This document shows positions 216-25,134 of a stretch of DNA of 64,000 nt, in pieces. Both the position numbers and the translations under genes were made by a program. Origin of the DNA: an uncultured Clostridia bacterium. GTDB taxonomy: Bacteria > Acidobacteriota > Aminicenantia > UBA2199. Every line of letters begins with the position of its first letter. Position 1 is the stretch's first letter. The stretch is taken from contig CAYNUG010000002.1 of the NCBI GenBank assembly GCA_964400545.1, positions 2,671-66,670 on the forward strand, read 5' to 3'. Below the pieces are notes generated by a model. That model was not told the origin of the DNA. It worked only from the letters and a program-made list of their open reading frames with translations, and made no database searches.

Positions 216-295
216 TGATTTCCTGTTTTCAAATATAAGAGTTTATATCATCTAAATTTCGGAGTGTCAATTTTAGATGGAGATTGATATTAAGT

Positions 296-1165: not shown

Positions 1166-1166
1166 T

Positions 1167-2750: not shown

Positions 2751-3145
2751 TTTATTTTGATCTTTAGGGATAAAAATCCCTTAATAAATTTATAAACCGA
2801 ATTAAATGGAATTATTAACAACAATAATAAGGTTCTGCAAAGTCTCCGTTTCTCATTTATGAAAACATCAAAGTTCTCCGGCATACATTCACCCAGATAG
2901 GTCATGACCTGAAATTTTTTTATCAGTAATTGATTGGTTCCCATTATCCTCGATGCATATTCTGCCGCAGCGAGATCAGATATTCTGTCAATTATCATTC
3001 TGTAATTTATAAGGTCGCTTTCTAAGAATGTCGATTCCAATTTTGCTGATGCGTTCTCAAACCTCTGCAGAACTATGTCAGGGATATCCTTCCTGAATAT
3101 TGATCGGTATATATTTATAGCTTCCCCGTTTTTCATTTTTATCAT
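2747..3145 (-). CDS. Hypothetical protein (132 aa); its start overlaps the upstream GMC gene stop by 4 nt.
   Basis: ORF only. Overlap suggests co-transcription. Confidence 0.35.
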   Translation of the reverse strand: MIKMKNGEAINIYRSIFRKDIPDIVLQRFENASAKLESTFLESDLINYRMIIDRISDLAAAEYASRIMGTNQLLIKKFQVMTYLGECMPENFDVFINEKRRLCRTLLLLLIIPFNSVYKFIKGFLSLKIKIK

Positions 3146-3196
3146 TATATAATATTTTCCGTGTGTTTGAAATTCCGGAAGCAGGTTCAGCTCAGA

Positions 3197-4240: not shown

Positions 4241-5110
4241 TTATTCCTCTTCAAGAATACTTATAAGATATTTCCCGTAATCACTGGGTGACAATCTGTC
4301 TGCCAGATATTTGAGTTCAGGTCTGCTTATATAGTTTCTTCTGAATGCAATTTCTTCAGGGCAGGATATTTTCAATCCCTGTCTGTCTTCTATTGTCTTA
4401 ACGAACATTGATGCATCGAGAAGGGAGCTGTTCGTTCCAGTATCAAGCCAGGCAAATCCCCGCCCCATCAGTTCCACTTTCATTTCGCCCCTCTTCAGGT
4501 ATTCGTTGTTGATATCTGTTATCTCGATCTCACCCCTTGCTGACGGTTTTATTGTGTGAGCCAGTTCAACCACGCTGTTATCATAAAAATACAATCCAAC
4601 TACTGCATAGTTTGATTTGGGCTCAGATGGTTTTTCCTCGATCGAAATAACTTTTTTATTCTTATCGAATTCTACTACACCGTATCTTTCAGGGTTTTTC
4701 ACATAATAACCGAAAACAATAGCACCTTTCTCTATTCTTCTGCTCTTCTCCAGCATTGAGATCAGATCATGGCCGTAAAAAATATTATCTCCCAGAATAA
4801 GGCATACACTGTCTGAGCCAATGAAATCTTTTCCTACTATGAATGCATCTGCTATTCCACGGGGCTCTGCCTGCTCTTTGTATTCTATTCTCAACCCCAG
4901 TTGTTTCCCGTTTCCCAACAATTTTTTAAACCTCGGGAGTTCTTCAGGTGTCGAAATTATCAGTATTTCTCTGATTCCTGCAAGCATAAGTGTGGAAAGG
5001 GGATAATAGACCATCGGTTTGTCGTAGACCGGTAAAAGTTGTTTTGATACAGGCAATGTCATTGGGTATAGCCTTGTCCCGTGTCCGCCTGCAAGAATTA
5101 TACCTTTCAA
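4241..5110 (-). CDS. rfbA: Glucose-1-phosphate thymidylyltransferase.
   Basis: [18 protein letters not shown]...[17 protein letters not shown] is the canonical RfbA N-terminus. 289 aa. Adjacent to rfbB. Confidence 0.9.
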
Positions 5111-5179
5111 ATATCGCCTCCGTTAATATTCAGATTATCTCAATTAACCGGAAGATAATCAATAGATGCGAATTGCTTT

Positions 5180-6145
5180 TCATTGCTCATCGTACATATC
5201 TTTCATCATTTGAATTTTTTCAATAATGATGTTTCTTAATTCTGGTGGTTCGATCACTTTTACTCCGGGACCGAGCGCCAGGATATCTTTGGTTATCTCT
5301 CTATAATCGGATACCCGGAATGTAATGGTAATGTGACTATCATCCGATCCTTCAACTATTTGGTCGTCCGACCATACTTGTTCCATTGCGATCTTTGCTG
5401 CATCATCCGAAAATCTGAGGACAATCACTTTCTTTTCGCCCTCCAGAAAAATACCGTAATTTTCATAAACTTTTTTCCTCAGATCCTTTTTTCTCAATTT
5501 GCCCGGTATCGGCATCTTGGTAATCTCCGATTCGGTGATCCTTGACAGGACAAAATCTCTTACTTCCTTTTTCTCATCACAAAAGGCAAACATGTGCCAG
5601 TTCCCCATATACAGAAGGAGGTGCATCGGATTTACGATCCTTTCTCCCGGATCTTCTTTGTACGGAGATTTGTAAGTTATTTTAAGTTTCATGCCGGAGT
5701 TCAATGATCTGATTACCGATTCGAAAATAGCAGGAGTGACTTTGTAATATCGGATGTTCTTTATTGAAATCTTTTTTTCAAGAGCAGAAATATCAATTCC
5801 TGTCTCTCTTAAAAATTTTTTTATAAATAGATCGAATCTTTTTTTCCTCTTTTTATGAGGAATTGTTGAGGCAAGCCGTTTTGCAATTATCAGAGTAATG
5901 ATCTCCTCTTCGGATGCCCAGATTCCGGGGAGTTCGAACTTATCATCAGAATAAAAGTATCCGGTTTCGTTATTGGAGTATTCAATAGGAGCATCGAAAA
6001 ACAGCCTCATGAACTCGATCTCTCTTGATGCCTGCCGCTGTGATATCTCGAATTTTTCAGACAGATCGGATAATTTCGGATATTTCCCTGCCTTCAGTCT
6101 GGAATGAAACCACAGATAACGTTCGTAAGCCAGTTTCCCTGCCAT
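5180..6145 (-). CDS. WYL domain-containing transcriptional regulator (HTH-WYL-WCX architecture, YafY/PafBC-like).
   Basis: Start placed at internal Met MAGKLAYERYLWFH (ATG rev at 6143-6145) rather than the track ORF start at 6256. N-terminal HTH (KLSDLSEKFEISQRQASREI). Central WYL-type motif GNWHMFAFCDEKKEVRDFVLSRI. C-terminal WCX-like extension. Confidence 0.7.
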   Translation of the reverse strand: MAGKLAYERYLWFHSRLKAGKYPKLSDLSEKFEISQRQASREIEFMRLFFDAPIEYSNNETGYFYSDDKFELPGIWASEEEIITLIIAKRLASTIPHKKRKKRFDLFIKKFLRETGIDISALEKKISIKNIRYYKVTPAIFESVIRSLNSGMKLKITYKSPYKEDPGERIVNPMHLLLYMGNWHMFAFCDEKKEVRDFVLSRITESEITKMPIPGKLRKKDLRKKVYENYGIFLEGEKKVIVLRFSDDAAKIAMEQVWSDDQIVEGSDDSHITITFRVSDYREITKDILALGPGVKVIEPPELRNIIIEKIQMMKDMYDEQ

Positions 6146-6189
6146 ACAGAATTTATAACAGAAAAAGCAAAAAATTTCACGGCCTACTG

Positions 6190-6303
6190 TTTGAACTCTG
6201 ATTCGCTTGACTTTCTTGATGGGTTTTTTGTAGGGGCAGGCCTTGCGTCTGCCCAACTCACCGATATTTCAAGAGATGGGCGAATCGCCATTCGCCCCTA
6301 CAA
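6190..6303. repeat. Mosaic intergenic repeat, copy A. Module M1 (degenerate, ttgaactctgattcgcttgac) plus module M3 (ttttttgtaggggca) with nested hairpins: gggcag-N9-ctgccc, gggcgaat-cgcc-attcgccc, and outer tgtaggggc/gcccctaca.
   Basis: Seen directly. Shares the ctgattcgc and ttttttgtaggggca cores with the copies at 13049 and 17653. Lies in the divergent region between the WYL regulator and the first island gene. Confidence 0.7.
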
Positions 6304-6593
6304 TTCCATTTTCTGTTTGTTTATAATCTATATATTTCTCAGCATAAGGGTAGACGCGAGGCCTACCCCTACGTTAAATGATGGTTCTGACAAAAGGCTG
6401 GATATCTCCTGTGAAATTCCAGGAAGATAAATTGATTTAGAATTTAGAATTAAAAGTCATGGAAATTATAGTTTAAATAAATATTTGAATTGACGTGTCC
6501 GTATTAAAATATAGATCAAATGAAATTGTATAAAAAGTATTTCTTGGTTAGCATAATTATTAGCGATATCTTTTTTACTCAAATGGAGAAAAA

Positions 6594-8108
6594 ATGAAAA
6601 AGTATATATTGCTTTTCTTTCTTATAATGACATTTTTAATAATTACCGGATGTTCGGGGATTAATCAGAATAAGATTAGAACTGACAAGGAGATCATTGA
6701 AGAGGCACGTTTTCTGGAGATGGTTAAAAAAGGAAATAAAGAGTTTGAGAAAATGCACTGGGTGGGATGGACGAATGCGATCAGGATCTACAAGTCAGCT
6801 TTAAAGTTAATGGATTCCTTCGAAATTAGAAAGAAACTCTTTTTCTCTCTGCTGCTTCGTGCCGGGAGATCAAGTTTTCTTGCCCTTTCGGGGGTTGAGG
6901 ACATAAAAGCTGCTGAGAGTTTATTGCCGGAATTAGTAAAGAAAGAAAAGAATCTGCAACTGTATTATCAATTCGTAAAAGGAACAATATGTTCTACCAA
7001 ATCTTTTTCTCTCAAAAGAAGAGATTTGATTACTCTAAAACCTGACCTCAAAAAAGATTATGAGTATTTTTTATATATAACATTTCTCGGTAGATATTGT
7101 GACCTTAAGGAATACAGGGAAAATAGCGACAATATGATTAAAATTTTTCCCGAGTCCAATTTTAAATATTTTCTTCGTGATATTTTTATTGAAATAGATG
7201 TGGGTTTAAGAAAATATCCTGATTTTATTGAATTATTGTTGAGAAAGGGTGAGAGGTTTTTTAATACGGGAAAATTGAGAAAAGCCGAGGAATATTATTT
7301 GAAAGTTCTTGGATTCAATAAAAATGTTCCGTATGCTTTAACAGGATTGGGAGGGGTATATCTTAGTTACGAGCTGTATTCAAAAGCTCTTGATTTCTAT
7401 AATAGATCGGGAAAGAAAATTTCGCATTACTATAAAAATCTGTTCGGTAAAGCGGTCTGTTTATCTCAAATGGGAGAATATTTACGTTCGATTGAGGCTC
7501 TTGACATTATGCTGGAAAACAAACTCCCGTATCTTGGGGAGGCATATTATTACAGGGCATTTAATAATTTCTTATTGAAGGAATATGCAAAGGTAGAGCC
7601 TGATCTGAAAGCTTCCGAAGAATATATCGGGGATTCATTGGAATTAAACACTTTGTTCGGGATGTTTTATTATCAAACCGGAAGAGAAAAAGAATCGGTT
7701 AAATACTTCAAAAAAGCCATTCAAATTAATCCGGAATATCCGCGTCCTTATTATTATCTCGGATTTTTAGACGCAAACAAGAATAATATCAATGGATCAA
7801 TTATGCACTTCTCCCTCGCAGGGAAATTTTATCTGAAAATGATAAAAGGCAAAATCAAAAATATTAAGAATTTGAAGGATAGAGATTTGTCATCCGTTAG
7901 AAAAAAAGAAATTCGGGAAAAGAGGATTAAAAGGGTCAAGCAGAAGATCAAAGAAATAATCCGAAAATTAAACAAGGTAATATTGATGTTTAAAAAACTT
8001 CACCGAGAGAAGATCGAATTTTTATTTCATGTGATTGAGGAATTAAAAGTGTTAATGAAACCTGATTTTCTTGATGGCCATGATGTTATAGATATATTAC
8101 GGAGATGA
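6594..8108 (+). CDS. TPR-repeat lipoprotein with a basic coiled-coil C-terminal region.
   Basis: Signal peptide plus lipobox (LIITGCSG). Multiple TPR-like repeats (YYYRAFNNF, AIQINPEYPRPYYYLGF). Lys/Arg-rich C-terminal segment. Confidence 0.6.
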   Translation: MKKYILLFFLIMTFLIITGCSGINQNKIRTDKEIIEEARFLEMVKKGNKEFEKMHWVGWTNAIRIYKSALKLMDSFEIRKKLFFSLLLRAGRSSFLALSGVEDIKAAESLLPELVKKEKNLQLYYQFVKGTICSTKSFSLKRRDLITLKPDLKKDYEYFLYITFLGRYCDLKEYRENSDNMIKIFPESNFKYFLRDIFIEIDVGLRKYPDFIELLLRKGERFFNTGKLRKAEEYYLKVLGFNKNVPYALTGLGGVYLSYELYSKALDFYNRSGKKISHYYKNLFGKAVCLSQMGEYLRSIEALDIMLENKLPYLGEAYYYRAFNNFLLKEYAKVEPDLKASEEYIGDSLELNTLFGMFYYQTGREKESVKYFKKAIQINPEYPRPYYYLGFLDANKNNINGSIMHFSLAGKFYLKMIKGKIKNIKNLKDRDLSSVRKKEIREKRIKRVKQKIKEIIRKLNKVILMFKKLHREKIEFLFHVIEELKVLMKPDFLDGHDVIDILRR

Positions 8109-8165
8109 GCTCTGTGAACAATCATGGTAATCCTTTAATCGTGTAAATCATGGTTTAGACAATTA
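8058..8165. repeat. Mosaic intergenic repeat copy (modules M1+M2). It overlaps the last ~50 nt of the upstream CDS and continues into the intergenic region.
   Basis: About 75-80 percent identical over ~105 bp to copy B at 10726-10836 (cctgatt..cttgatggccatgatg..tatagat....aatcatggtaatc..gtaaatcatggtttagacaa). Confidence 0.7.
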
Positions 8166-8305
8166 AATGAACCATTTTTGAAAAAAGTTGTGACAATTTA
8201 GGGACAATATTCAAGGTACAGGACTAGAATCCATGGAAATTTACTTGCTAATAGTTATATGTTTAACAAAAGTGTGAACAACTCATTTGAGAGATGGGAG
8301 CGAGC

Positions 8306-9148
8306 ATGAAATATTTGTCAATTTTTTTATATATTTTGTTATTTGTTGTTTTAAGCGGAGAGGTTGATTATGAAAAAAAAAGTGAGGATCAATTAAACAA
8401 ATACCTCGCTGGATCTGCTGAATACTGCAAAAAGCTTAAGGGTGAAGCCTTTCATTTTTATTGCAAGGAAAAAATCTTGTTCGAAAGGGATGAGTTTGTT
8501 CTTGGATCAACTCGCAGGGGTAATCTTAAAAGGAGAAGATCAAGTACAAAATCATATTTTGACTATCAACTAATTCAGGAGGGCGGAAAGCTTAAAGAGA
8601 GGCGAAGGCGGATCTCAGATAAAGTAGCTGATGTAGAGATGGATCCATCTGAACTATTGCTGTCATTTTTAAGTGAAAAAGCAGTTTTCGGACCAAATTC
8701 TATTCTTGATCAGGCAAGGCAGAGTAATTTTAATTATAAAATATTTAAGAATAAAAAGACAAAAGAAAATGATATCGTTATTATTAAAGCGATTCCAAAA
8801 ATACCGGGGAGAACATTTTTTTTAGCAGCAGAGGTTTATATTGATAAGAAAAATTTCTCAGTAAGAAAGATCGTTGCTACTCCTGTATTCATCAAAGGAT
8901 ATGAGAATATGAAAAGGACTGCATCATATTTTAAGACCAGACTATTTCTTGATTGTGAGATCCTATTTGATCAGTCATACAAAGGTTTATTCTTCCCGAC
9001 ACTCATTACAATTACCGAGAAATATAAAGGAGGTCCTGTTGTAAATCGTAATACAAGATCTAAGGAGTGGGTAAAGAGTAAAACCACATTTAAGTACTAT
9101 GAATACAGATTCTTCGATGTGGATACTGAAGTTAAAGTTCAGGACTAA
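8306..9148 (+). CDS. Hypothetical secreted protein.
   Basis: Start taken at second Met (MKYLSIFLYILLFVVLSGE is a signal peptide) with GGAG 5 nt upstream. No recognisable domain. Confidence 0.45.
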   Translation: MKYLSIFLYILLFVVLSGEVDYEKKSEDQLNKYLAGSAEYCKKLKGEAFHFYCKEKILFERDEFVLGSTRRGNLKRRRSSTKSYFDYQLIQEGGKLKERRRRISDKVADVEMDPSELLLSFLSEKAVFGPNSILDQARQSNFNYKIFKNKKTKENDIVIIKAIPKIPGRTFFLAAEVYIDKKNFSVRKIVATPVFIKGYENMKRTASYFKTRLFLDCEILFDQSYKGLFFPTLITITEKYKGGPVVNRNTRSKEWVKSKTTFKYYEYRFFDVDTEVKVQD

Positions 9149-9160
9149 AAAGGAGTTGGG

Positions 9161-10711
9161 ATGAAGAATTTAACAGTTATTTTACTACTTGTTTTTTGTT
9201 TGTTTTCTATTGGATTGTTTGCTCAGGAGAAGGAGATCCGGGAGGATATGGTTGTTATCAATGTTGAGGTTCCTGTTCGGGTAATGCATAAGGGGAAGCC
9301 TGTTGATAATTTGAAAAAATCAGATTTCAGATTATTTGAGAACGGGAAAGAAATTGATATAAACGGATTCAATATTGTCAGGAAAAAAATATCAAGCCAG
9401 AGTATTGAACTTGATTCAGAGAGAAAACAATTCTATGAGCCGAGGTTATTTGTATTGGCATTCAGTGTCACAAATTTCAATAAATTCTATGAAAAAGGGG
9501 TCAGGTACTTTTTTAATACAGTATTGAGAAAAGAAGATAAATTGTTGATTTTTGTGAATAATGCGACCTTAACTTATAACAATTTGAATTCTAAACAGAA
9601 GATCCTTGAGGAAATAATTCTTAGATTGAATAAAGAAGGCAAAGAAGCAAGAAAAAATCTAAGACTTGTGATGATGAGAACGGACAGTGGAGTGAGAAAT
9701 TTAGTTGCAAAATTGAAATCACCACCAAACAGAGGAGCAAAATCTGTATTGCAAAGCGAAGTGTTATCATTTTTCATGCAATATCACTCTGCCTGGAAGA
9801 TGTATAAACAGAGTTATCTGACACTGGATATTTATACACTTTATAATTTTGCGGCATTTTTAAAAAGGATAACTCTGGAAAAATGGGTGATAAGCTTTTA
9901 TCAATATGAAAGGTTTTCCGTGATAAATTTCAATTCTTCCGGAGGTCAATTAATTAGAAAATATATGGGGCCGGAAAGTGGAAGAATTGCCGGTGCCGTT
10001 TCCCGGGAATTCACAGCCGGAAGGACTTTCCCGTATGAAGAGGTCAGCAAAATGTATTATAACCTTGGTGCGACATTTAATCTTGTTGTGATACCGACCA
10101 GAATTGAGACAGATTCTGAAGCAACAAAAACTGCTAACCTTTCAACGGCAGCAGAGATCACATTGAGAGAGATTGCCAAAAGGACAGGCGGATCTGTTTC
10201 ATTCTCTACAGATCTCACAAAATCACTCGAAAAAATTATTGAGAAGGAAGATATCAGCTATATTCTTACTTATGCACCGGAGGATAGTTCGAGAAGAGGG
10301 AGACTGAAGATCAAGCTCAAAGGTATGAGTTACAAACTTCTATATGATAATAATCAGAGAGCAGGTTTTATTAAAAGGAAAATGAAAAAATATACTGCTA
10401 AAGAGAAGATGGTGAAAGTTGAGAATCTTCAATTCCTGGATAAAAAACTCTTTTTTAGGATGATTAATTTCAAACAGAAAAAATACAAGAAGATAAAAGC
10501 AGGAAAGATCCAGGTCAATGTAATAATAAAAAATGATTTTGGTAAGATCCTGTTTGATGAAAATAAAATATTAAATCCTGAAAAAAAATCGACTGAAATG
10601 TCGATAGGTTTCAACTGGCTGAAGTCCGGCAAGTATGATCTGATAATTGATGTCAGAGATATGCTGACCAACCACAAAGCATTCGAATATTTGAAGATCG
10701 AGGTTAAGTGA
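9161..10711 (+). CDS. Hypothetical secreted protein (516 aa), possibly with a VWA-like fold.
   Basis: Signal peptide MKNLTVILLLVFCLFSIGLFAQE. Weak resemblance to VWA-like beta-alpha-beta pattern (LFVLAFSV.., KLLIFVNNATL, TGGSVSF). Function unknown. Confidence 0.4.
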   Translation: MKNLTVILLLVFCLFSIGLFAQEKEIREDMVVINVEVPVRVMHKGKPVDNLKKSDFRLFENGKEIDINGFNIVRKKISSQSIELDSERKQFYEPRLFVLAFSVTNFNKFYEKGVRYFFNTVLRKEDKLLIFVNNATLTYNNLNSKQKILEEIILRLNKEGKEARKNLRLVMMRTDSGVRNLVAKLKSPPNRGAKSVLQSEVLSFFMQYHSAWKMYKQSYLTLDIYTLYNFAAFLKRITLEKWVISFYQYERFSVINFNSSGGQLIRKYMGPESGRIAGAVSREFTAGRTFPYEEVSKMYYNLGATFNLVVIPTRIETDSEATKTANLSTAAEITLREIAKRTGGSVSFSTDLTKSLEKIIEKEDISYILTYAPEDSSRRGRLKIKLKGMSYKLLYDNNQRAGFIKRKMKKYTAKEKMVKVENLQFLDKKLFFRMINFKQKKYKKIKAGKIQVNVIIKNDFGKILFDENKILNPEKKSTEMSIGFNWLKSGKYDLIIDVRDMLTNHKAFEYLKIEVK

Positions 10712-10725
10712 TCTCAGGTATATTA

Positions 10726-10836
10726 TCTGAACCCTGATTCGCCTGATGGGCATGATGCCTATAGATTTATCCCGAAAATGAGTACTTTGAGTAATCATAG
10801 AAATCTTTTAATCAAGTAAATCATGGTTCGGACAAA
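10726..10836. repeat. Mosaic intergenic repeat, copy B (modules M1+M2): tctgaaccctgattcgcctgatgggcatgatgcctatagatttatcccg ... gtaaatcatggttcggacaa.
   Basis: Seen directly. Shares M1 with copies at 8058, 13049, 17653 and M2 with the copy at 8058. Confidence 0.75.
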
Positions 10837-10971
10837 AATTACTGTGAAGATTATTTAAGATTCTTCGGATAATTATTTTTAAGCTTCCAGAAATTAATTT
10901 CTTACAAAATAATTTGATTATGTCACAATTATCAATTGCAAACGTCATAGGGTATTGATATTAGAAAAGCT

Positions 10972-11487
10972 ATGAGAAATGAATATACGATGGATAATAA
11001 AAATATGATAGATCAATTGTTCACCCGGTATAACAAAAAAATATTCAACTTTGTTTTTCGCCTGACCGGAGATAGTGATCAGTCAAAAGATATAGTTCAG
11101 GAAACATTTATCAGAGTTTACAAAATACTAATGTCAGGATCGATTATCCAGAACCAGAAGGCAATAATCTTTAAGATCGCTTATAACCTTTTCATTGATA
11201 AATTCAGAAAGAACAAAAACACTATTAATAATAATTCCCTTCTTGAGCAAAGACAACATGAAATATTGAACCCTGAAGAGAATTACTTAAATACTGAAAA
11301 CAGAGAACTATTAACAAAAGGAATTAAAAGAATGAAGAGAAAAGAGCAGATATTGCTCGATTTGTATGCAGAGAATTTCTCATATAAAGAGATGGCAGAG
11401 ATCATAGACATGAACCAGAACTCTGTCGGGAAGACATTGTCGAGAACCATCGATAAGCTTTTCAAAAATGTAAATATCGGAGAATAA
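10972..11487 (+). CDS. RNA polymerase sigma-70 factor, ECF subfamily.
   Basis: Region 2 (IVQETFIRVYK...KIAYNLFIDKFRK) and region 4 (FSYKEMAEIIDMNQNSVGKTLSRTIDKL) signatures. 171 aa. Start could be the downstream Met at 10990. Confidence 0.8.
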   Translation: MRNEYTMDNKNMIDQLFTRYNKKIFNFVFRLTGDSDQSKDIVQETFIRVYKILMSGSIIQNQKAIIFKIAYNLFIDKFRKNKNTINNNSLLEQRQHEILNPEENYLNTENRELLTKGIKRMKRKEQILLDLYAENFSYKEMAEIIDMNQNSVGKTLSRTIDKLFKNVNIGE

Positions 11488-11488
11488 A

Positions 11489-11989
11489 ATGAAACATTTA
11501 AAAAGATTTAAAATACAGCTGTTTATAGATAATGAGTTGTCAAATGAAGAATGTAAAATAGCAGAAACTCATCTGGCAGAGTGCAAAGAGTGTAAATCAG
11601 TTGAAACTAATATTAGAAAAAAGATTTCTTTTCTGAAGAATGTAATAGCTGAATCAGGCGTAGAGAGAACCCCGGAAATGAAATTTGTTCCTGAGATTCC
11701 CAAAGAAATCTCTAGGAAAAAGAAATATATAAGATTACCTGTCCCGGTATTTGCAGCAATGATTGGAATAATTGTGTTTATGGGATTAATGCTGTTGTTT
11801 AATGGAAATCAGGCAAAAGGATCTATTCCTGAGATCGAAGGAAAATCTATTGTTAATTATGTAAGAGTTGAGTCGGAGAGTTCGAGAGAGATAAGTTCTA
11901 TAAACTTGGATCTGTCTGAATATTCAGCAATAAAAAAGCCCAAAATCAGGGTGATAAAGAGAGGAAAAACAAAAAATGAAAAAATTTAA
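11489..11989 (+). CDS. Anti-sigma factor, zinc-finger (ZAS-like HxxxCxxC) with a single transmembrane helix.
   Basis: Starts 2 nt after the sigma gene stop. HLAECKECK motif. TM segment VPVFAAMIGIIVFMGLMLLF. Confidence 0.65.
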   Translation: MKHLKRFKIQLFIDNELSNEECKIAETHLAECKECKSVETNIRKKISFLKNVIAESGVERTPEMKFVPEIPKEISRKKKYIRLPVPVFAAMIGIIVFMGLMLLFNGNQAKGSIPEIEGKSIVNYVRVESESSREISSINLDLSEYSAIKKPKIRVIKRGKTKNEKI

Positions 11990-13034
11990 AATTTTATTTC
12001 TATTAATGTCAGTTATTTTTTTTCCTGGTAAAGGTTTTCCGGCAGGATCAGAAATGGTTAAAAACAATGATACCGGGGATACCGAAAAGGTCACTTTTTC
12101 CCAGCAGGAAGAATTCATATCTGTAACTGACAAGAATCCGGATTATAAGTCGAAAACTTTTATCAAACTGTCAATTAAGATAATTGAGATTAAATCATCA
12201 AAATCGATCCTTAAATCTGAATTAGCAATAAAAGTGATTGATGGTGAAGAAGGTAGTGTAAGGATAGGTTCTGGTCCTCCTGTGAAGAAACCTATAAATT
12301 ATAAATCAAAAATAAAACGTGAAATGATGGTTATAAATATCTCTCCCAAGATAATTAAGGATAAAGGCATTCGACTGAGTATTAAAACCTCATATTTTGT
12401 AACTGATGATGCTTATGCTAAGTTCAATAATCGAAAGGACCAATCTCAGAGTGCAAATTCATCGAGTGATGTATTAACGGCGAATTTAGAAGAGGTAATG
12501 ATTGATTTGCTTGAAAACAAGAAAAAAAAATCAAAAATAGTAATGAAGGTGACACCTTTCATTGAAACAATCTCAGGTGCTAAAGTTTATCCAGGGATAG
12601 TTAAATTCAAACTGATGACACCTATTCTTATAATGAATGATGAATTAATATACAAAAATACGAGTTCCCCGGATTTTATGTCCGGAGTATCATCAGATAA
12701 GACAATTAAATCGAGTTGTTTTATTGAATGCATAGTTAGAAAAAAGAATACAGGTTCTTTTCTTCTATCGGTTAAACCGTTCAAGGGATTAAAAAAAGTC
12801 GGAGTTGTAAACAATAAGATCATGAAATTCAGGTTTGAGAAAGACAAATTTGAATTAATATCACTCGAACAAATTCTTCCGCTTGAAGGGAAGTGGATTA
12901 TTTATGGGATGCATATTCCTGTAAAAAAGTTTGGTGGAGATCCTCTTGACAGAAATCCTTTCATTAAGGGTAAGGGTGGAGTTTATGTGTTATGTGTGGG
13001 TGATGTGGAAGAATATCTAAAAGATCTTTTGTGA
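11976..13034 (+). CDS. Hypothetical secreted protein co-transcribed with the sigma/anti-sigma pair.
   Basis: Signal peptide MKKFKILFLLMSVIFFPG. 14-nt overlap with the anti-sigma gene. Confidence 0.45.
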   Translation: MKKFKILFLLMSVIFFPGKGFPAGSEMVKNNDTGDTEKVTFSQQEEFISVTDKNPDYKSKTFIKLSIKIIEIKSSKSILKSELAIKVIDGEEGSVRIGSGPPVKKPINYKSKIKREMMVINISPKIIKDKGIRLSIKTSYFVTDDAYAKFNNRKDQSQSANSSSDVLTANLEEVMIDLLENKKKKSKIVMKVTPFIETISGAKVYPGIVKFKLMTPILIMNDELIYKNTSSPDFMSGVSSDKTIKSSCFIECIVRKKNTGSFLLSVKPFKGLKKVGVVNNKIMKFRFEKDKFELISLEQILPLEGKWIIYGMHIPVKKFGGDPLDRNPFIKGKGGVYVLCVGDVEEYLKDLL

Positions 13035-13048
13035 TTTTGAGGGACATT

Positions 13049-13181
13049 ATCTGAGCCCTGATTCGCCTGATTAATCTGATGGCATGTTGGTGTAGTTCTA
13101 TCCCGGAGATATTTTTTTGTAGGGGCAAATGGCAATTTGTCCGGATTTGGACAAGATAAATCGGTGAATTGCCATTCACTC
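13049..13181. repeat. Mosaic intergenic repeat, copy C (modules M1+M3). Contains ttttttgtaggggcaaatggcaatttgtccggatttggac and hairpin ggtgaat-tgcc-attcact followed by a T-rich tract.
   Basis: Seen directly. M1 matches copy B over the first ~50 bp. M3 matches copies A and D. Confidence 0.75.
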
Positions 13182-13331
13182 CTTGTATATTAGATTATTA
13201 AATTAGTTTTATTGATTTAATTGCTTAAGGCAATAAATATGTTGTGCTTTGGTATCGTTTTATAGTTAGTTTGAAAATTAACTTTGAATTTTATATGATC
13301 TTGCTAAGGTTTTTTAAGAGATGGAGGGATT

Positions 13332-14129
13332 ATGAAAAAAGGTATTGTGCTATTGCTAATTGTTTTTTCCATGTCACTGTTCAGTGATGAATTTACAAGA
13401 TATGATATTCAGAATTCTTATTCCAAACTCTTTTCGATTGAGGCGATGGAATATAAGGGGAAAAAGTATATCAGTGTTCGGGTAAGTAAAAATGAGGATG
13501 CGGTTTTTTCAGAATTAACCGAGTCCTATTATTTTTTCCTTACATATCTGATAACTAACGGGAGTAAATATGATTTCGAAGAAATAAAAAAAGAGACTGA
13601 TAAGAATAAGATGAATGAACTTTTCGTAAATCAGCTGAAAAAAAATGATAGGTTCAACAACCTGGTGGTTCCTGTAATTTCCCGTTATCTGATCTCAAAA
13701 GGGCATTTGGTGCCATTCTTTAAGCCTGAAGAGGATAAACCGGTCACAATAACTGAGATACAAAGAACAGCTGTCAGGTTCTTTTATCCCCATTTAGGCA
13801 GGAATGGGAAAATGCAATTTTACATTTGTGCAGGGATAAACGGTTTTAAAGATTTTGGCGGAAAGAGAAATTTACTTGTCGAGGCATTTGCGTATGCGGC
13901 AATATTTAATGATCTAGGAACTGATTCGAAAGTTAACCTGTCAACAATATTTTCAAAACTCCTCGGGAAGATCATGAAGCTGGGAATGTCAAATGATAAA
14001 GATGTAAATGTCCATCGTATTCAGGGAGCCGCCTGGTTTGAGATGAGTAAAGACAAAAAACTGGAAAAGGTTTTGATCAATTCATTTAGAGTTCACAAGT
14101 CTCTATTGCCATTCAAACTGGAAATGTGA
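13332..14129 (+). CDS. Hypothetical secreted protein.
   Basis: Signal peptide MKKGIVLLLIVFSMSLFSDE. 265 aa. Confidence 0.45.
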   Translation: MKKGIVLLLIVFSMSLFSDEFTRYDIQNSYSKLFSIEAMEYKGKKYISVRVSKNEDAVFSELTESYYFFLTYLITNGSKYDFEEIKKETDKNKMNELFVNQLKKNDRFNNLVVPVISRYLISKGHLVPFFKPEEDKPVTITEIQRTAVRFFYPHLGRNGKMQFYICAGINGFKDFGGKRNLLVEAFAYAAIFNDLGTDSKVNLSTIFSKLLGKIMKLGMSNDKDVNVHRIQGAAWFEMSKDKKLEKVLINSFRVHKSLLPFKLEM

Positions 14130-14220
14130 AAACACAATCAAAGAAGTGTTTTAAAATTTTGGAATAATTTTATTTAAAATTATATAATTCTTTTAATAGA
14201 GTTTTTCCGGGGGAAAAGGA

Positions 14221-15222
14221 ATGAGAAAGTTTATATTGTTCATATTGCTGGGTTTGATTGTACTTAATATTCCTGCAAAGAAGCTGGCCGAGTTTGATGA
14301 TATCTATAAGCCCTGGCAAATTGAAATCTCTGGTGATGATCTGTATGTGGTTGATGACTATTCTATCAAACTTTTTTCATTGAAAAATGCAAAGCTTATT
14401 GCCCAGTTTGGGAAAAAAGGGGAAGGGCCGGGGGAATTTAAAATGTCTCCTTCAATATCTGTTTTTCCTGATTATATCTTTGTCAGTGATTACGGTAAGA
14501 TACTTTTTTTCAAGAGAGATGGCAAGTATATTAGGGAAAAGAAAATTCCTGCTGAAATTGATCTTACGAAGGTAGGGAAGAATTACCTTGCCAGAGAATA
14601 TAGCTTTGATGCAAAAGAAAGAAAAAGCAAATTCGGAGTTAAAGTTGTAGATAGTGAATTAAAAAAAATTAAAGATATATATACATTTACGAGAAAGTTT
14701 CCTAGACGCAATATCAATAGCAAAAAAAAGAACATATTTGACCGTGAAATGTTTCAAAAGAGAAAGAGAATTACTACTGATGGTAATTTTATTTATCTAT
14801 ATGATACAAGCAAAGGGTTCCATATAGAAATTTTTGATCCTATGGGAGAAAAGATCAGAACTATTACAAAAAAAACAGAATTAGTAAAAATCAGTAATAA
14901 GTTTAAGAAAAAATATGCTGAAAATTTGGAGAAGAACAGAAAGAAAAATATAGGAGGAATATCATTCGGGTTTAATTATATTTTCCCAGAGTATTTCCCT
15001 CCAATAATTTATTTATCTGCGGATAACAAAAAGATTTATGTTACTACCTATGAAAATGATGCGGATAAAAGAACTCTTATTATTCTTGATCATAATGGTG
15101 TAATACAAAAAAAAATCTCGATATTAACTCAAAATATGTCAACTATACATAATGATAAACTTTATTATCTCATCGACAATGAAGATGAAGAGGTGTGGGA
15201 ACTTCATGCTGAGGATCTATAA
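14221..15222 (+). CDS. Secreted 6-bladed beta-propeller (NHL-like) family protein, paralog 1.
   Basis: Signal peptide. Repeated blade motif with GKKGEGPGEF (NHL-type G.G.G.F signature). Paralogous to the two following genes. Confidence 0.6.
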   Translation: MRKFILFILLGLIVLNIPAKKLAEFDDIYKPWQIEISGDDLYVVDDYSIKLFSLKNAKLIAQFGKKGEGPGEFKMSPSISVFPDYIFVSDYGKILFFKRDGKYIREKKIPAEIDLTKVGKNYLAREYSFDAKERKSKFGVKVVDSELKKIKDIYTFTRKFPRRNINSKKKNIFDREMFQKRKRITTDGNFIYLYDTSKGFHIEIFDPMGEKIRTITKKTELVKISNKFKKKYAENLEKNRKKNIGGISFGFNYIFPEYFPPIIYLSADNKKIYVTTYENDADKRTLIILDHNGVIQKKISILTQNMSTIHNDKLYYLIDNEDEEVWELHAEDL

Positions 15223-15270
15223 TTTATAAATAGTCATAGTGGGATGTATTACTTCTGAACAGGGGGTTGG

Positions 15271-16266
15271 ATGAAATTCTTTATAATTTTTAATTTATTA
15301 TTTATTTCACTCTTTTCTGTTGTTCTTAACAGTAAAGTATTGTGGAAAAGTTCTATTGTTATAGGAATGCCCGTCAAAGTAGTAGTAAATAAGGAAGGGA
15401 TTTTTATTGGGGACAGTAAGCAAATAAAAATATTTCATCTTGATCTTAATGGGAAAATGATCTCTGAGATCGGTAAGCCGGGTGAAGGCCCGAATGAATT
15501 TACAAGTCTGCAGGATTTTGCAATTCATAAAGAAAAAATATATGTAAAAAGTAACTCCCGAATAAAATGCTTGAATTTAAAAGGGGAATTCATAAATAAG
15601 TGGAACTTTACAATGAAATATACCGTGCACCACTTTTTTGTAAACGAATCTGGTTTTATCCTGGTGGGGAAAAAATTCGAGACAGACCCAAAAGCTTATT
15701 CAAAACCGGAAACATCTCCCTATAATTTTTTTCATAATATTTCATTTAGTGGAGAGCTGATAAAAAGTTTCGGACCATCTTTCCCTGAGCTGGAAAAACT
15801 GAACGTGTGGGATAATCTTCTAATCCTTGCAGGTATGACTCCTTCCGTTATTAATAATGAAATATTTTATGCTAATCATCTGAATTACCAGATCTGGAAA
15901 GCATCAATACGTAGTGGGGAGAGTGTTAAATTAATCGATGAAGATGTCTTATACTTTATTCCATTCTTATCCAAACTTAATCAGTTTTCCGGAAAAGGAG
16001 GAACAATAACCAGGGGAGATATCAGGGGAACATATATAAGGTTTTTCAAGGATGGGGAAAAATTAGTAGTGTATTTAAAGGGTGGCAGCTGGAGTAAAGG
16101 ATACAAATCCACATACTTAAGAGTATACGCTCTTCAACCTCATGTTAGATTCATAAAGGAAACAAAGCTTGATAACAACCTGAATGTTTTTTCCTATTAT
16201 AATGGTGTGTTTTATGGATTTGATGATGAAGGAGATTTTCTGGCAATGAAGATTGATTCGAACTGA
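15271..16266 (+). CDS. Secreted 6-bladed beta-propeller (NHL-like) family protein, paralog 2.
   Basis: Signal peptide. GKPGEGPNEF blade motif aligns with GKKGEGPGEF of the neighbours. Confidence 0.6.
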   Translation: MKFFIIFNLLFISLFSVVLNSKVLWKSSIVIGMPVKVVVNKEGIFIGDSKQIKIFHLDLNGKMISEIGKPGEGPNEFTSLQDFAIHKEKIYVKSNSRIKCLNLKGEFINKWNFTMKYTVHHFFVNESGFILVGKKFETDPKAYSKPETSPYNFFHNISFSGELIKSFGPSFPELEKLNVWDNLLILAGMTPSVINNEIFYANHLNYQIWKASIRSGESVKLIDEDVLYFIPFLSKLNQFSGKGGTITRGDIRGTYIRFFKDGEKLVVYLKGGSWSKGYKSTYLRVYALQPHVRFIKETKLDNNLNVFSYYNGVFYGFDDEGDFLAMKIDSN

Positions 16267-16405
16267 GGGATAATCAGATATGGGAGAATTCGGAGTAGGA
16301 AATTTCAACATGGGATTTGATAGTTCCAAATGAATGTGAAGTTATTTTTCTTGAAATGTTAGTTCGATAGATATTTGTAATATCTTAAATATATAGGAGG
16401 TACAA

Positions 16406-17554
16406 TTGAAAAAATTATTTATTCTATTGTCATTGCTATTCATCATGGTTTGTTTCAATAATTTGCTTCCCCGGGATAAAGATACTTTTAAAAGTAATTC
16501 CGGATCTTCCATTCTTAATAAAAATGAGAGAGTGTTGATGTTGAAAAAAGTCTTTTCTCTTGAGGGGAATTCAGATGAATATCAGTTTAAAGATCCTATC
16601 AGGTTTGATATCGGAGAGGATGGTTCAATCTTTATCATGGACCGGAACAGGGCTCTTTACAAATTTTCAGAAGAAGGAATATTTCAGAAGAATCTGCTAA
16701 TAAAAGGAGAGGGTCCGGGGGAGTTGAAACGCCTGTTCAGGTTCTTTATAGATAATAACAGAGTCATTCTGTTTGATCACTTTCCAAACAAAATTGTTGA
16801 AAAAGATTTTAAGGGAAAGTTTATAAATAACTTCTCAATTCCAGAAAGAAAACTTAAGGTCGTAATTCTTCTGGGGATTGAAAGTGGATTGTTCTTTTTC
16901 TCTATAGCAGAAGATGGGAACATCCCGAAAAAACTTTCAAAAGAATATAGAGAATTTTCCAGAAAAATTTTTTTTCACACTTGGAAAAATGGAGAAAAAA
17001 ATATAAAAAAGGGTGAGTCTTTCTACATAGATCATTCCAGGTGGAAAAGAAAACAAAAATATATTATCGGCGGCACATCACCGCTAAATGCATTTGAGAT
17101 CAGCAATGTAAAAAATGGTTCTGCATATTTTATAAATAGCTTTGATTATAAGATTAAAAAACTTGATGTTCATGACCTGAAGATTAAAAATGAGTTTGGC
17201 AGGCCTTATGTTAGAGTCAAATATTTCCATCCTCCCGAATATCTTGAAGAGATGAGAAGGGAAAAGAAATCTGTCGAAGATCCGGAAAAAAAACATTTTC
17301 AGGCAGTTCAGAAATTGATCAATAGAGGAACTGAGGTGTGGGCGGTTACTTCAACGTTTAAAAAGGATAAAGGCATTTTAGTCGATGTGTTTTCTCCGGA
17401 TGGAACGTATATGGATAAATTCTACTTACCCCTTCCTGAGATAACATCTTCTCACTTGCCTGAATTTAATATTGTAGATAATAAAATCGTCATTCTTGGA
17501 AAAGATGAAGATGAGAACCACATCATAAATATTTATGAAATAGTAGATTTGTAA
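16406..17554 (+). CDS. Secreted 6-bladed beta-propeller (NHL-like) family protein, paralog 3 (TTG start).
   Basis: AGGAGG RBS 6 nt upstream of TTG at 16406. Signal peptide. IKGEGPGELKRLF blade motif. Confidence 0.6.
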   Translation: MKKLFILLSLLFIMVCFNNLLPRDKDTFKSNSGSSILNKNERVLMLKKVFSLEGNSDEYQFKDPIRFDIGEDGSIFIMDRNRALYKFSEEGIFQKNLLIKGEGPGELKRLFRFFIDNNRVILFDHFPNKIVEKDFKGKFINNFSIPERKLKVVILLGIESGLFFFSIAEDGNIPKKLSKEYREFSRKIFFHTWKNGEKNIKKGESFYIDHSRWKRKQKYIIGGTSPLNAFEISNVKNGSAYFINSFDYKIKKLDVHDLKIKNEFGRPYVRVKYFHPPEYLEEMRREKKSVEDPEKKHFQAVQKLINRGTEVWAVTSTFKKDKGILVDVFSPDGTYMDKFYLPLPEITSSHLPEFNIVDNKIVILGKDEDENHIINIYEIVDL

Positions 17555-17652
17555 CTTTGCGAGGCTGGGATGAATCGGTGTGAGAACTTCATGTTGTTTA
17601 TTTGTAGGGAGCGAGAGAGGATTGATTTTAATGAGTGGACAAATTAAAAAAT

Positions 17653-17775
17653 GTCTGAACCCTGATTCCATTTGTTATCCTGATTTACATAGATGGAGAT
17701 TAGTGTAGGGGCAAATGGCCATTTGCCCGGATTTGAACTGAAATATCAAAAGCGGTTACACTATGTCCCCTAGTT
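17653..17775. repeat. Mosaic intergenic repeat, copy D (modules M1+M3). Contains a perfect 20-bp palindrome GGGCAAATGGCCATTTGCCC at 17708-17727.
   Basis: Seen directly. tctgaaccctgattcc ... gtgtaggggcaaatggccatttgcccggatttgaac. Confidence 0.75.
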
Positions 17776-17814
17776 GAGTTTGATATTCCCCAAGTGTCAT
17801 TGTAGAATTGTCTG

Positions 17815-18414
17815 ATGGGTGAAATAAAGAGTATTTGTCTTTTCTGCGGGTCGAGCAAAGGAAATAACTCTGAATATCTTGATTCTGCATACGAAACAGG
17901 GAAATTATTGGCTGAAAAAGGTATTGGAATGGTCTATGGTGGCGGCAATGTCGGACTGATGGGAATGGCTGCGAAAGGGGCACTTGAGAACGGCGGGAAG
18001 GTGACAGGTGTTATCACTGAAAAACTTATGGATATGGAGGTCGGGCATACCGGACTTACAGAGATGAAAGTTACATCTTCGATGCATGAAAGAAAAGCGA
18101 TGATGAATAAACTTTCTGATGGATTTTTGGTTCTTCCTGGCGGAATCGGCACAATAGAGGAAACATTCGAGATGTTCACATGGTATCAACTGGGAGATAT
18201 TGAGAAACCGATAGGACTTCTTAATGTGAATGGTTATTATTCCGGGTTGATCGAATTCCTCAAGAATGTTGTTGCAAATGGGTTCCTGAGAGAAGAGCAT
18301 CTTGAATACCTGATCGTAGAGAAGAAGCCGGTCGAGTTGATCAAAAGAATTACAAATTCAAATGTAAAGCATTTGGAAAAGTGGTTTGACAGAGATAAAA
18401 ATATAATAAAATAG
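17815..18414 (+). CDS. LOG family protein (cytokinin riboside 5'-monophosphate phosphoribohydrolase-like, TIGR00730 type).
   Basis: GGGNVGLMG and PGGIGTIEE motifs. 199 aa. Confidence 0.8.
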   Translation: MGEIKSICLFCGSSKGNNSEYLDSAYETGKLLAEKGIGMVYGGGNVGLMGMAAKGALENGGKVTGVITEKLMDMEVGHTGLTEMKVTSSMHERKAMMNKLSDGFLVLPGGIGTIEETFEMFTWYQLGDIEKPIGLLNVNGYYSGLIEFLKNVVANGFLREEHLEYLIVEKKPVELIKRITNSNVKHLEKWFDRDKNIIK

Positions 18415-18417
18415 AAG

Positions 18418-19794: not shown

Positions 19795-19803
19795 ATTCGG
19801 TTT

Positions 19804-21279: not shown

Positions 21280-21366
21280 TCCTTCTCCTGTAATTAATCG
21301 GGGTATAGAAACAATATAGCTTTTTTCATGGTTTTGTCAAGAGTTACGGATCAGGAACGGGTTTGT

Positions 21367-25073: not shown

Positions 25074-25134
25074 TTAGGTTCAATAAAATTATAGCACATG
25101 GATGTAAGAATTTATAAGGTTTTTGCCCATATGT

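Follow-up and report, generated by a model that had tools for sequence, protein, structure and literature searches.

Gene content of the locus

The window, a 64-kb stretch of DNA from the MAG of an uncultured Aminicenantes bacterium (Acidobacteriota), carries ten genes between positions 6594 and 17554, all co-oriented on the plus strand (Table 1). Checking the ORF coordinates bore out the gene positions and orientation proposed in the first-pass annotation, although its count of 11 signal-peptide proteins has to be lowered to ten plus-strand genes. Nine of the ten products have N-terminal hydrophobic segments, compared to none of the five flanking products, and for this reason the enrichment in export signals goes beyond chance. 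The claim that every product has a signal peptide or TM anchor thus holds for all but the sigma factor, which is cytoplasmic (no signal peptide and no TM segment). Profile searches matched none of the plus-strand products from 6594 to 17554 to an enzymatic family, as had been anticipated, and PADLOC matched no cargo protein of the island to a defence family.

Table 1. Features of the variable slot and its flanks (positions in the 64-kb window).
Feature	Position	Strand	Details
rmlB	3197-4240		co-directional with WYL and rmlA
rmlA	4241-5110		co-directional with WYL, 69 nt downstream of it
WYL-WCX transcription regulator (left flank, core gene)	5180-6145	-	Pfam WYL 2.6e-15, WCX 5e-13
Variable slot	6146-17814		between core blocks WYL-rmlA-rmlB and LOG-amidohydrolase
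Left slot junction, repeat cluster	6180-6400		three REP-like elements plus MITE-end motifs
Left-junction MITE-end motifs	6191-6204; 6377-6393
Left-junction REP-like elements (GTAG + GC-rich palindrome)	6230-6254; 6278-6301; 6348-6372	+; -; -
TPR lipoprotein (module 1)	6594-8108	+	Pfam TPR_1/2/8; lipobox LIITGC
Half copy of MITE-like repeat	8087-8162	+	78% identical to 10760-10835
Portable conserved leader	8152-8344	+	promoter, 5' UTR, SD, start codon; nucleotide identity 76-85% to L004, L005, L088
U284 (module 2)	8294-9148	+
516-aa MIDAS-less VWFA-related secreted protein (module 2)	9161-10711	+	TIGR03436 1.2e-16
MITE-like element, ~113 nt, junction of modules 2/3	10716-10835	+	imperfect terminal inverted repeats TCTGAACCCTGATT ... 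AATCATGGTTCGGA
Putative autoregulatory ECF promoter	10921-10946	+	TGTCACAA-N14-CGTC, 25 nt upstream of the sigma start codon
ECF sigma factor, 171 aa (module 3)	10972-11487	+	Sigma70_r2, r4_2, TIGR02937
ZAS single-pass anti-sigma factor (module 3)	11489-11989	+	zf-HC2
Orphan secreted protein U352, 352 aa (module 3)	11976-13034	+
Junction of modules 3/4	13040-13152	+	left-end MITE repeat 13040-13071 (91% identical to 10716-10747) and REP-like element 13119-13142
U265 (module 4)	13332-14129	+
Propeller BP1 (module 4)	14221-15222	+	NHL-type, six-bladed; TolB_like 23.8 vs cut-off 29.2
Propeller BP2 (module 4)	15271-16266	+	NHL-type, six-bladed; DUF5128 1e-11, 45.1 vs 22.9 bits
Propeller BP3 (module 4)	16406-17554	+	NHL-type, six-bladed; DUF5128 9e-9, 35.4 vs 22.9 bits
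Right slot junction	17651-17738	+	MITE-end motif 17655-17668 and perfect REP-like palindrome 17705-17728
LOG-family (Lysine_decarbox) core gene (right flank)	17815-18414	+	Pfam 1.3e-42; syntenic in L004, L005, L087, L089

A variable slot between conserved flanks

The window is collinear with L004 and L005 over positions 1-6200 and 17780-26000, at 71-79% DNA identity, and its interior is mostly missing there. The number of genes between WYL and LOG across the relatives and the window is 0, 1, 2, 2, at least 7 and 10; as all the comparison genomes are MAGs or contigs, some of these absences could in principle be assembly artefacts, although in L004, L005, and L089 a single contig covers both flanks. 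L089 has an empty slot (228 nt). The slot contains a single U284-like gene in L087, a 194-aa ORF and a VWA gene in L004, and a VWA gene with an erythromycin-esterase-family protein in L005. The slot of L088 holds TPR, VWA46, U284-like, U284, VWA72, methylpurine glycosylase and U265, without the sigma module. Its TPR lipoprotein is 60% identical to that of the window, and no copy is present in the slots of L004, L005, L087, and L089. The ECF/propeller part is missing from the slots of all five relatives with readable content. Modules were also found independently, in other combinations, in L002, L003, and L088, and the cargo families are all Aminicenantes-specific paralog families.

The WYL regulator

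Translation of the WYL regulator almost certainly begins with the ATG at 6145 (MAGKLAYERYLW) and not at the start of the longer ORF 5180-6256, since the orthologs start likewise (their start reads MSMAGKLSYERYLW); the 37-codon TTG extension of the longer ORF reaches into repeat DNA. The gene does diverge from the slot, as first described. WYL-rmlA-rmlB synteny is kept in L004, L005, L086, L088, and L089, the five relatives with enough downstream contig, and LOG/amidohydrolase is kept near the WYL ortholog in L004, L005, L087, and L089. Orthologs at 71-77% identity share these core neighbours in most relatives, L090 having neither rml nor LOG/amidohydrolase next to its ortholog; none of these neighbours was found beside those at ≤51% identity.

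The regulator shares its HTH-WYL-WCX architecture with PafBC, BrxR, CapW, and CRISPR-associated WYL proteins (PADLOC WYL models, 4e-30). Unlike these, it adjoins no recognisable defence or DNA-damage system, and its conserved neighbours are genes of the dTDP-rhamnose pathway. Co-conservation with an adjacent controlled system was not found either, since the slot may hold anything from 0 to 10 genes while WYL stays the same. On our reading, WYL adjoins the slot without being a regulator devoted to it.

A narrower role of WYL is conceivable but rather unlikely, namely that it represses or activates the leader-driven first cargo gene (VWA/U284), its own gene or rmlAB, the leader of this genome having been displaced by 2 kb through insertion of the TPR gene. 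In L004 and L005 the leader diverges from the WYL start at a distance of 90-215 nt, and in six genomes WYL, rmlA, and rmlB form a compact co-directional block, both of which speak for such a role. However, the leader also lies away from WYL in L003, L089 has no leader altogether, no operator motif was identified, and the WYL-rml link is lost at ≤51% identity and in L090.

The leader and the VWFA-related protein

The leader preceding module 2 carries an invariant 17-mer (ATGGAAATTTACTTGCT, 8233-8249) and stands before different cargo genes in different genomes; the same 17-mer is also present in L003, outside the slot. The U284-VWA pair downstream was found as well in L003, L011, L072, and L088.

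One of the four secreted proteins initially left unassigned, the 516-aa product, can be placed: it is related to the expanded VWFA family of the Acidobacteriota but is MIDAS-less. Its match to TIGR03436 stays below the curated cut-off (61.1 vs 81.25 bits), with the best stretch covering model positions 9-136 of 324. The MIDAS motif DxSxS is absent: LIDISSS of the canonical neighbour aligns to LAFSVTN, and the family consensus at this position, FVLVFxxTxFN, has no invariant Asp or Ser. We found 301 relatives, with several paralogs per Aminicenantes genome. The AF2 model (pLDDT 81) displays alternating beta-alpha elements, and the best Foldseek matches of the 516-aa multidomain model were Sec23/24 chains (TM-scores 0.22-0.24) together with Ig-like domains, all below 0.25; the trunk domain of Sec23/24 is VWA-like. 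The protein shares with the TIGR03436 family secretion, restriction to Acidobacteriota and massive expansion with several paralogs per genome; in the AF2 model an N-terminal beta-sandwich precedes a putative VWA-like alpha/beta core. In contrast to that family, it adds in the model a long helical insertion (145-235) and, at the C-terminus, a further Ig-like domain. In 13 loci it adjoins a canonical MIDAS-bearing member. VWA paralogs are also the neighbours of an ECF/propeller unit at three loci (window, L002, and L066), which might point to some looser functional tie of module 2 to module 3.

The ECF sigma factor unit

The assignments of an ECF sigma factor and a ZAS-type anti-sigma factor were confirmed. 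The sigma factor is above the cut-offs of Sigma70_r2 (38.7 vs 24 bits), Sigma70_r4_2 (26.5 vs 25.7), and TIGR02937 (85 vs 42.9), consists of sigma2 and sigma4 domains only and passes the threshold of the ECF (sigma-70 group 4) family, reaching no equivalog or subfamily cut-off (SigM_subfam, 92 vs 148 bits). The anti-sigma factor scores 29.1 bits with zf-HC2 (cut-off 22.2) and 23 bits with the RsrA equivalog model (cut-off 62.5), and it has the HxxxCxxC zinc motif (HLAECKEC, residues 28-35), one TM helix near residue 85 and ~60 extracytoplasmic residues. The genes of module 3 abut or overlap, the anti-sigma gene starting 1 nt beyond the sigma stop codon and overlapping U352 by 14 nt. The family of U352 has four members in 5.8e9 proteins, and a REP-containing gap of 297 nt separates this gene from U265.

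The three propellers are tandem paralogs, as had been noted, though judging from their sequences the relationship is old and very divergent (BP1/BP2, 31% over 104 aa; BP2/BP3, 25%, E=0.03). BP1 hits BP2 at 3.8e-8 and, at 5e-89, the family HMM, to whose building it contributed. Among solved structures, the NHL domains 6d69 and TRIM2/3/71 come closest, together with 4raa. Propellers have a background of ~1% of the ORFs in 1.2 Mb of Aminicenantes loci.

Away from WYL, the ECF/propeller unit was found again in at least five further genomic contexts. In L002 it comprises sigma, anti-sigma, U352, and three propellers; L080 has a DUF5128 gene, sigma (43%), anti-sigma (36%), a U352-like gene (43%) and then two DUF5128 genes; in L083 and L084, sigma (38 and 36%, respectively) and anti-sigma are followed 21 nt downstream by DUF5128; and L066 carries a distant sigma together with a TM protein, a 191-aa secreted protein and a propeller, the gaps between them measuring 0-10 nt. 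The sigma/anti-sigma pair is kept in L085, as in L002 and L080, with L083, L084, and L066 being more distant, while L081, a 2.1-kb contig, contains only the last 80 anti-sigma codons and a U352 homolog and lacks a sigma gene. ECF sigma factor, ZAS anti-sigma factor and DUF5128 propeller(s), accompanied by U352 in the closest copies, are a conserved unit that is predicted to be envelope-directed. What had been proposed as an uncharacterised envelope module survives in this unit, but not for the whole island nor for the link with WYL.

SigW-RsiW, SigE-ChrR, and SigR-RsrA are ECF (group 4) sigma factors with ZAS-type single-pass anti-sigma factors. The pair described here has in common with them the sigma2/sigma4 architecture, an adjacent, translationally coupled anti-sigma factor with HxxxCxxC and one TM helix, and, ahead of the sigma gene, a predicted two-part promoter whose -10 box is CGTC. 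It differs from the classic ECF/ZAS pairs in its conserved operon partners, the NHL/DUF5128 propeller and (in the closest relatives) the orphan U352, neither of which is, to our knowledge, a described ECF accessory component.

The boxes and the spacing of the putative promoter are kept in the window, L002, L080, and L085 with a diverged spacer, a phylogenetic footprint that reaches a total of six loci with L083 and L084, where TGTC is the -10 box. The motif TGTCACAA-N14-CGTC occurs once in the 64 kb and no second copy was found upstream of any other island gene; therefore, a wider regulon within the island is unsupported. By analogy with established ECF/ZAS systems, the single-pass anti-sigma factor would hold the sigma factor at the membrane until an envelope cue released it, and the secreted U352 or the propellers may help to sense this cue. 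The free sigma factor would then transcribe from its own promoter, raising the expression of sigma, anti-sigma, and U352 and, by read-through, that of the secreted NHL propellers, which might be output or sensor components of the unit.

Repeats at the module junctions

The intergenic mosaic repeats reported for the island are real, and both REP-like and MITE-like sequences are present. Collinearity with L004, L005, and L088 ends at 6174-6200 and that of the core restarts at about 17780, and the synteny breaks coincide with these repeats. All five GTAG-palindromes of the 64-kb window are intergenic and located in gaps of the slot. Most MITE-end motifs likewise cluster in these gaps, the exceptions being a few weak matches (1-3 mismatches) at 21152, 42523, and 53889, and they are found as well at homologous junctions in L002, L005, L087, and L088. 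A homologous copy of the MITE-like element adjoins LOG in L005 (9495-9598), and L002 has REP-like elements at places equivalent to the junction of modules 3 and 4.

The palindromes resemble REP/BIME elements in that GTAG is followed by a GC-rich imperfect palindrome and in forming mosaic clusters in the gaps after convergent or co-directional genes, although with just five copies in 64 kb, all in the slot, their REP membership is by form only. The ~113-nt element shares terminal inverted repeats with MITEs. No RAYT-like ORF was noted in the 64-kb window, and no transposase gene was seen among the ORFs scanned. The junction repeats likely serve as substrates for, or arise as by-products of, the recombination by which modules are gained or lost, although they could also be passive passengers.

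Repeats at both ends of the slot, its variable presence among relatives and a GC content about 6 points below that of the flanks (0.331 vs 0.39) would also fit a horizontally acquired mobile genomic island, i.e., the cargo of an integrative element or transposon that entered as one piece. We regard this as improbable. No integrase, transposase, or recombinase domain was matched with Pfam/NCBIfam among the ORFs of 150 aa or longer from 296 to 22644 (a set that excludes the 108-aa ORF at 6104-6430), and there is no tRNA gene in the 64-kb window. The low GC is common to the small slots of L004 and L005, which show the same offset, and the independent occurrence of the modules in L002, L003, and L088 points to piecemeal gain and loss. 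Foreign origin is not indicated because all cargo families are specific to the Aminicenantes. A mobile genomic island or integron is accordingly not supported, the ORFs scanned giving no recombinase match, the window having no tRNA gene and the modules being multi-gene and independent of one another.

A probable accessory-gene hotspot with an ECF module

Our reading is that the region 6146-17814 is probably a strain-variable accessory-gene slot, or plasticity hotspot, with at least four separable modules, inside which the ECF unit is the one coherent machine, WYL being merely a neighbour. The modules would be the TPR lipoprotein; the leader with U284 and the VWFA-related protein; sigma, anti-sigma, and U352; and U265 with the three propellers. 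The slot shares with plasticity regions and integration hotspots its fixed core flanks, a number and identity of genes that vary between close relatives, lower GC and enrichment in surface or secreted proteins. In contrast to these, it shows no integrase match, tRNA gene, or phage remnants, and its cargo is made of lineage-specific paralog families, not foreign DNA. Our verdict is an ordinary accessory-gene hotspot together with an uncharacterised ECF module.

The earlier interpretation is only partly supported because neither the whole island nor the WYL-ECF-propeller combination is co-conserved in the gene neighbourhoods of other genomes. A single uncharacterised envelope-stress or surface-remodelling system, with WYL in control of ten envelope genes and the ECF pair as internal relay, would suit the co-orientation of the ten genes, the export signals on nine products, the divergence of WYL from the first slot gene and, in L004 and L005, directly from a leader driving a VWA or small OMP-like gene, but it is highly improbable and already largely refuted by synteny, as in relatives with an unchanged WYL the contents of the slot range from nothing to at least 7 different genes (WYL is present even beside the empty slot of L089), the sigma/propeller unit stands in five other contexts without WYL, the leader and U284-VWA lie away from it in L003, and no such neighbours accompany the distant WYL orthologs.

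Beyond the hotspot reading, it is unlikely, though conceivable, that the slot is a repeat-bounded cassette-exchange site, in which REP/MITE repeats and a portable leader, with its invariant ATGGAAATTTACTTGCT and its conserved SD and start codon, would swap secreted-protein modules in an expression-ready position, and that sigma, anti-sigma, and NHL propeller would form a new three-component ECF group with a secreted propeller as receptor. If the cassette-exchange reading were true, the slot would give rise to population-level variation of the Aminicenantes cell surface.

Gene Content of the Locus

The ORF map agrees with the first-pass annotation on the gene positions and plus-strand orientation of the island diverging from the WYL regulator, with a run of ten genes instead of the eleven signal-peptide proteins originally counted. 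They form at least four modules: a TPR lipoprotein; U284 and a 516-aa VWFA-related (VWA) protein; an ECF sigma factor, its anti-sigma factor and U352; and U265 with three propellers (U284, U352, and U265 being unassigned secreted proteins named by length in aa). A hydrophobic N-terminal signal or anchor segment was found in nine out of the ten plus-strand products versus none of the five flanking ones. The TM helix of the anti-sigma factor is internal, and the sigma factor has neither a signal or anchor segment nor a TM helix, being the exception to the claim that every product carries one or the other. As had been proposed, no island product matched any enzymatic family in the domain searches. 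The propellers are NHL-like (closest solved structures 6d69, TRIM2/3/71, and 4raa) and, with pairs matching at 31% identity over 104 aa and at 25% with E = 0.03, are, judging from their sequences, old paralogs.

The orthologs of the WYL regulator begin at MS-MAGKLSYERYLW, and therefore its true start is almost certainly the ATG at 6145. An overlapping 108-aa ORF, which lies wholly inside a REP cluster, is almost certainly not a gene. On the other side, rmlA and rmlB belong to a run of dTDP-sugar pathway genes. Its other members are an epimerase/RmlD-like gene and one for a protein of 527 aa, whose only match, to a pyridine-nucleotide-disulphide oxidoreductase family, is sub-threshold (E = 0.004).

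Features of the locus (window positions unless a related locus is named)
Feature	Position	Strand	Remarks
dTDP-sugar gene run	296-5110	-	
rmlB	3197-4240	-	co-directional with WYL and rmlA
rmlA	4241-5110	-	co-directional with WYL, 69-nt gap
WYL+WCX regulator	5180-6256	-	longest ORF; domain matches
108-aa ORF	6104-6430	+	overlaps 5' extension of WYL ORF
TPR lipoprotein	6594-8108	+	
Leader	8152-8344		
Leader 17-mer ATGGAAATTTACTTGCT	8233-8249; L003 9071-9087; L004 9337-9353; L005 6404-6420; L088 7999-8015		
U284	8294-9148	+	
516-aa protein	9161-10711	+	
ECF sigma factor	10972-11487	+	
Anti-sigma factor	11489-11989	+	zf-HC2/ZAS, one TM helix
U352	11976-13034	+	14-nt overlap with anti-sigma stop
U265	13332-14129	+	
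DUF5128/TolB-like propellers	14221-15222, 15271-16266, 16406-17554	+	
REP-like elements	6230-6254, 6278-6301, 6348-6372, 13119-13142, 17705-17728		GTAG + GC-rich palindrome
MITE-like element, full copy	10716-10835		~113 nt; imperfect terminal inverted repeats TCTGAACCCTGATT / AATCATGGTTCGGA
MITE-like partial copies	8087-8162, 13040-13071, 17651-17668		
MITE-like copy in L005	9495-9598		
Repeat-bearing slot gaps	6180-6400, 8087-8162, 10716-10835, 13040-13152, 17651-17738		

A Variable Slot Between Conserved Blocks

Positions 1-6200 and 17780-26000 of the window are collinear at the DNA level (71-79% identity) with two related Aminicenantes loci, L004 (HOU_bin.0035) and L005 (UBA647), both of which lack most of the interior. 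The genes compared individually, WYL, rmlA, and rmlB, are kept as a block in the closest relatives, and the stretch between WYL and the LOG gene varies from one relative to another. It is empty (228 nt) in L089 and holds a single U284-like gene in L087, a 194-aa weakly OMP-like ORF and a VWA gene (69%) in L004, a VWA paralog (46%) and an erythromycin-esterase-family protein in L005, and ten genes in the window. The corresponding slot of L088 contains TPR (60%), VWA (46%), U284-like, U284 (86%), VWA (72%), methylpurine-DNA glycosylase, and U265 (63%) genes, and lacks the sigma module. WYL orthologs at ≤51% identity have none of these neighbours, the rmlA/rmlB block included. Relative to its flanks, the slot is lower in GC by 5-6 points; this holds for the window, L004, and L005.

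Since slot content differs between relatives, the combination of WYL, ECF, and propeller genes is not co-conserved, an outcome that the first-pass annotation had itself named as refuting its proposal. Its reading as a single WYL-governed module is not supported, the sigma module also recurring without WYL (see below). A defence-system reading was discarded, PADLOC giving generic WYL models only and no match for the cargo. The region 6146-17814 is an accessory-gene hotspot filled by lineage-specific secreted-protein families.

Repeats and a Portable Leader

The mosaic repeats described as interrupting the island were confirmed as REP-like and MITE-like copies in the slot gaps. All five REP-like elements of the 64-kb window (GTAG head and GC-rich palindrome, e.g., GTAGGGGCAAATGGCCATTTGCCC) as well as almost every copy of the MITE-end motif lie inside intergenic gaps of the slot, and the repeat-bearing gaps coincide with module boundaries and synteny breakpoints. 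Homologous copies occupy matching junctions in L002, L005, L087, and L088, those of L002 and L087 including REP-like ones. MITE half copies are joined with REP-like elements in a mosaic resembling a BIME arrangement. No RAYT gene was noticed in the 64-kb window, the domain searches of the locus revealed no integrase or transposase domain, and no tRNA gene was found. We infer that modules have been gained and lost piecemeal, in association with repeats, rather than as a single mobile element.

A leader of ~150 nt, containing an invariant 17-mer, an SD and a start codon (MGA[SG]MKY), is 76-85% conserved in five loci with differing cargo. It precedes U284 in the window and L003, a VWA paralog in both L005 and L088, and the OMP-like ORF in L004, and may act as a promoter, an operator, or a 5' UTR element. 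One of the five, L003, lies outside the WYL/LOG slot and carries leader, U284, and VWA (84%) in another chromosomal context. No RNA family was matched in an Rfam search of 5000-18500, leader included.

The ECF Sigma Factor Unit

What endures of the proposed uncharacterised envelope module is a narrower ECF/propeller envelope-signalling unit, not the whole WYL-led island. The sigma module was found without WYL in six loci. L002 has sigma (85%), anti-sigma (64%), and U352 (40%) followed by three propellers, and L080 has DUF5128, sigma (43%), anti-sigma (36%), and a U352-like gene (43%) followed by two DUF5128. Sigma (38 and 36%) and anti-sigma precede a DUF5128 gene 21 nt downstream in L083 and L084, the short contig L085 carries sigma (47%) and anti-sigma, and L066 has a distant ECF sigma closely packed with genes for a TM protein, a secreted protein of 191 aa, and a propeller. 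The association is not due to chance, because propellers make up only ~1% of the ORFs in 1.2 Mb of Aminicenantes loci. Inspection by eye of the translations directly 3' of the L066 unit (15223-16356) identified a regulator of the Fur/PerR type and a peroxiredoxin-like gene, which might hint at oxidative stress as the setting. A RiPP-like link between DUF5128 and radical SAM, prompted by L083, was dropped, the radical SAM gene located after DUF5128 being an unrelated HydE.

The motif TGTCACAA-N14-CGTC precedes the sigma gene at a position kept among the relatives compared, with a diverged spacer; in L083 and L084 the -10 box reads TGTC. It occurs once in the window, only ahead of the sigma gene, and this uniqueness and conservation fit a predicted autoregulatory ECF promoter. 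An island-wide ECF regulon was rejected; the repeats common to three intergenic gaps are REP/MITE-like and not this motif. Scans for sigma-70 promoters and terminators gave background levels only. By analogy with established ECF/ZAS systems, the anti-sigma factor would hold the sigma factor until an envelope cue sets it free, and the freed sigma factor would induce the operon of sigma, anti-sigma, and U352, plus the propellers by read-through. Propellers or U352 may act as sensors or outputs of the unit. We found no useful literature on DUF5128, NVEALA, "VWFA-related" in Acidobacteria, or ECF sigma factors in Aminicenantes.

Secreted Protein Families

Among the four secreted proteins left unassigned in the first-pass annotation, the 516-aa protein turned out to be related to TIGR03436 (VWFA-related Acidobacterial domain; 1e-16, yet under the cut-off), while U352 remains without a Pfam family. 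Homologs of the former bear the names Candidatus Aminicenantes or Acidobacteriota, and a genome scan gave 301 relatives, which come as several paralogs per MAG and are spread over many unrelated contexts. In the AF2 model (pLDDT 81), a beta-sandwich at the N-terminus is followed by a VWA-like core, into which a long helical segment is inserted, and the C-terminus forms an Ig-like domain; Foldseek matched Sec23/24 chains and Ig-like domains, all with TM-scores <0.25. The DxSxS site is replaced, and proteins of this type come after a canonical MIDAS-bearing VWA protein in 13 loci. Across Aminicenantes MAGs, the genes upstream of the VWA match revealed a conserved trio (L014, L016, L022, L027, L040, L046, L048, L049, L052, L054, L064, and L078): a ~1026-aa annotation-less protein, a ~383-aa canonical MIDAS-bearing VWA, and one or two proteins of the 516-aa type that lack the MIDAS. 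This arrangement is probably ancestral for the family.

Among 5.8 × 10⁹ proteins, U352 has four relatives. Matches to the C-terminal extension of two homologs prevailed in a profile search of 1.84 × 10⁹ representatives, and the U352 domain itself accounted for only about six of them, none with a Pfam family. The longer homologs (529 and 571 aa) raised the idea that U352 is the detached C-terminus of an anti-sigma factor, discarded since they have the U352 domain N-terminal, with its own signal peptide, and a C-terminal extension unrelated to it. This helical extension of ~170 aa (residues ~345-529 in P0088 and ~345-571 in P0090), absent from the window U352, is very widespread (2157 representative clusters at E ≤ 1e-3) and in many cases forms a stand-alone protein of ~240 aa; no Pfam family covers the extension. 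The AF2 model of U352 is poor (pLDDT 47.6, built from only four sequences), and weak Foldseek matches to a secretin-like fold (E ≥ 4e-3, TM ~0.2) were not relied on.

Significance for Aminicenantes

To our knowledge, there is essentially no experimental genetics in Aminicenantes (OP8). The hotspot and the ECF unit belong to known kinds, and the locus opens no long-standing question. It also cautions that a neat run of co-oriented genes with export signals beside a WYL regulator does not amount to a conserved system. The locus shows where Aminicenantes genomes differ among close relatives, the varying families being lineage-specific secreted proteins such as VWFA-like proteins, NHL propellers, and TPR lipoproteins, and in the ECF signalling unit it offers something concrete to test, with a minimal regulon and a predicted promoter.
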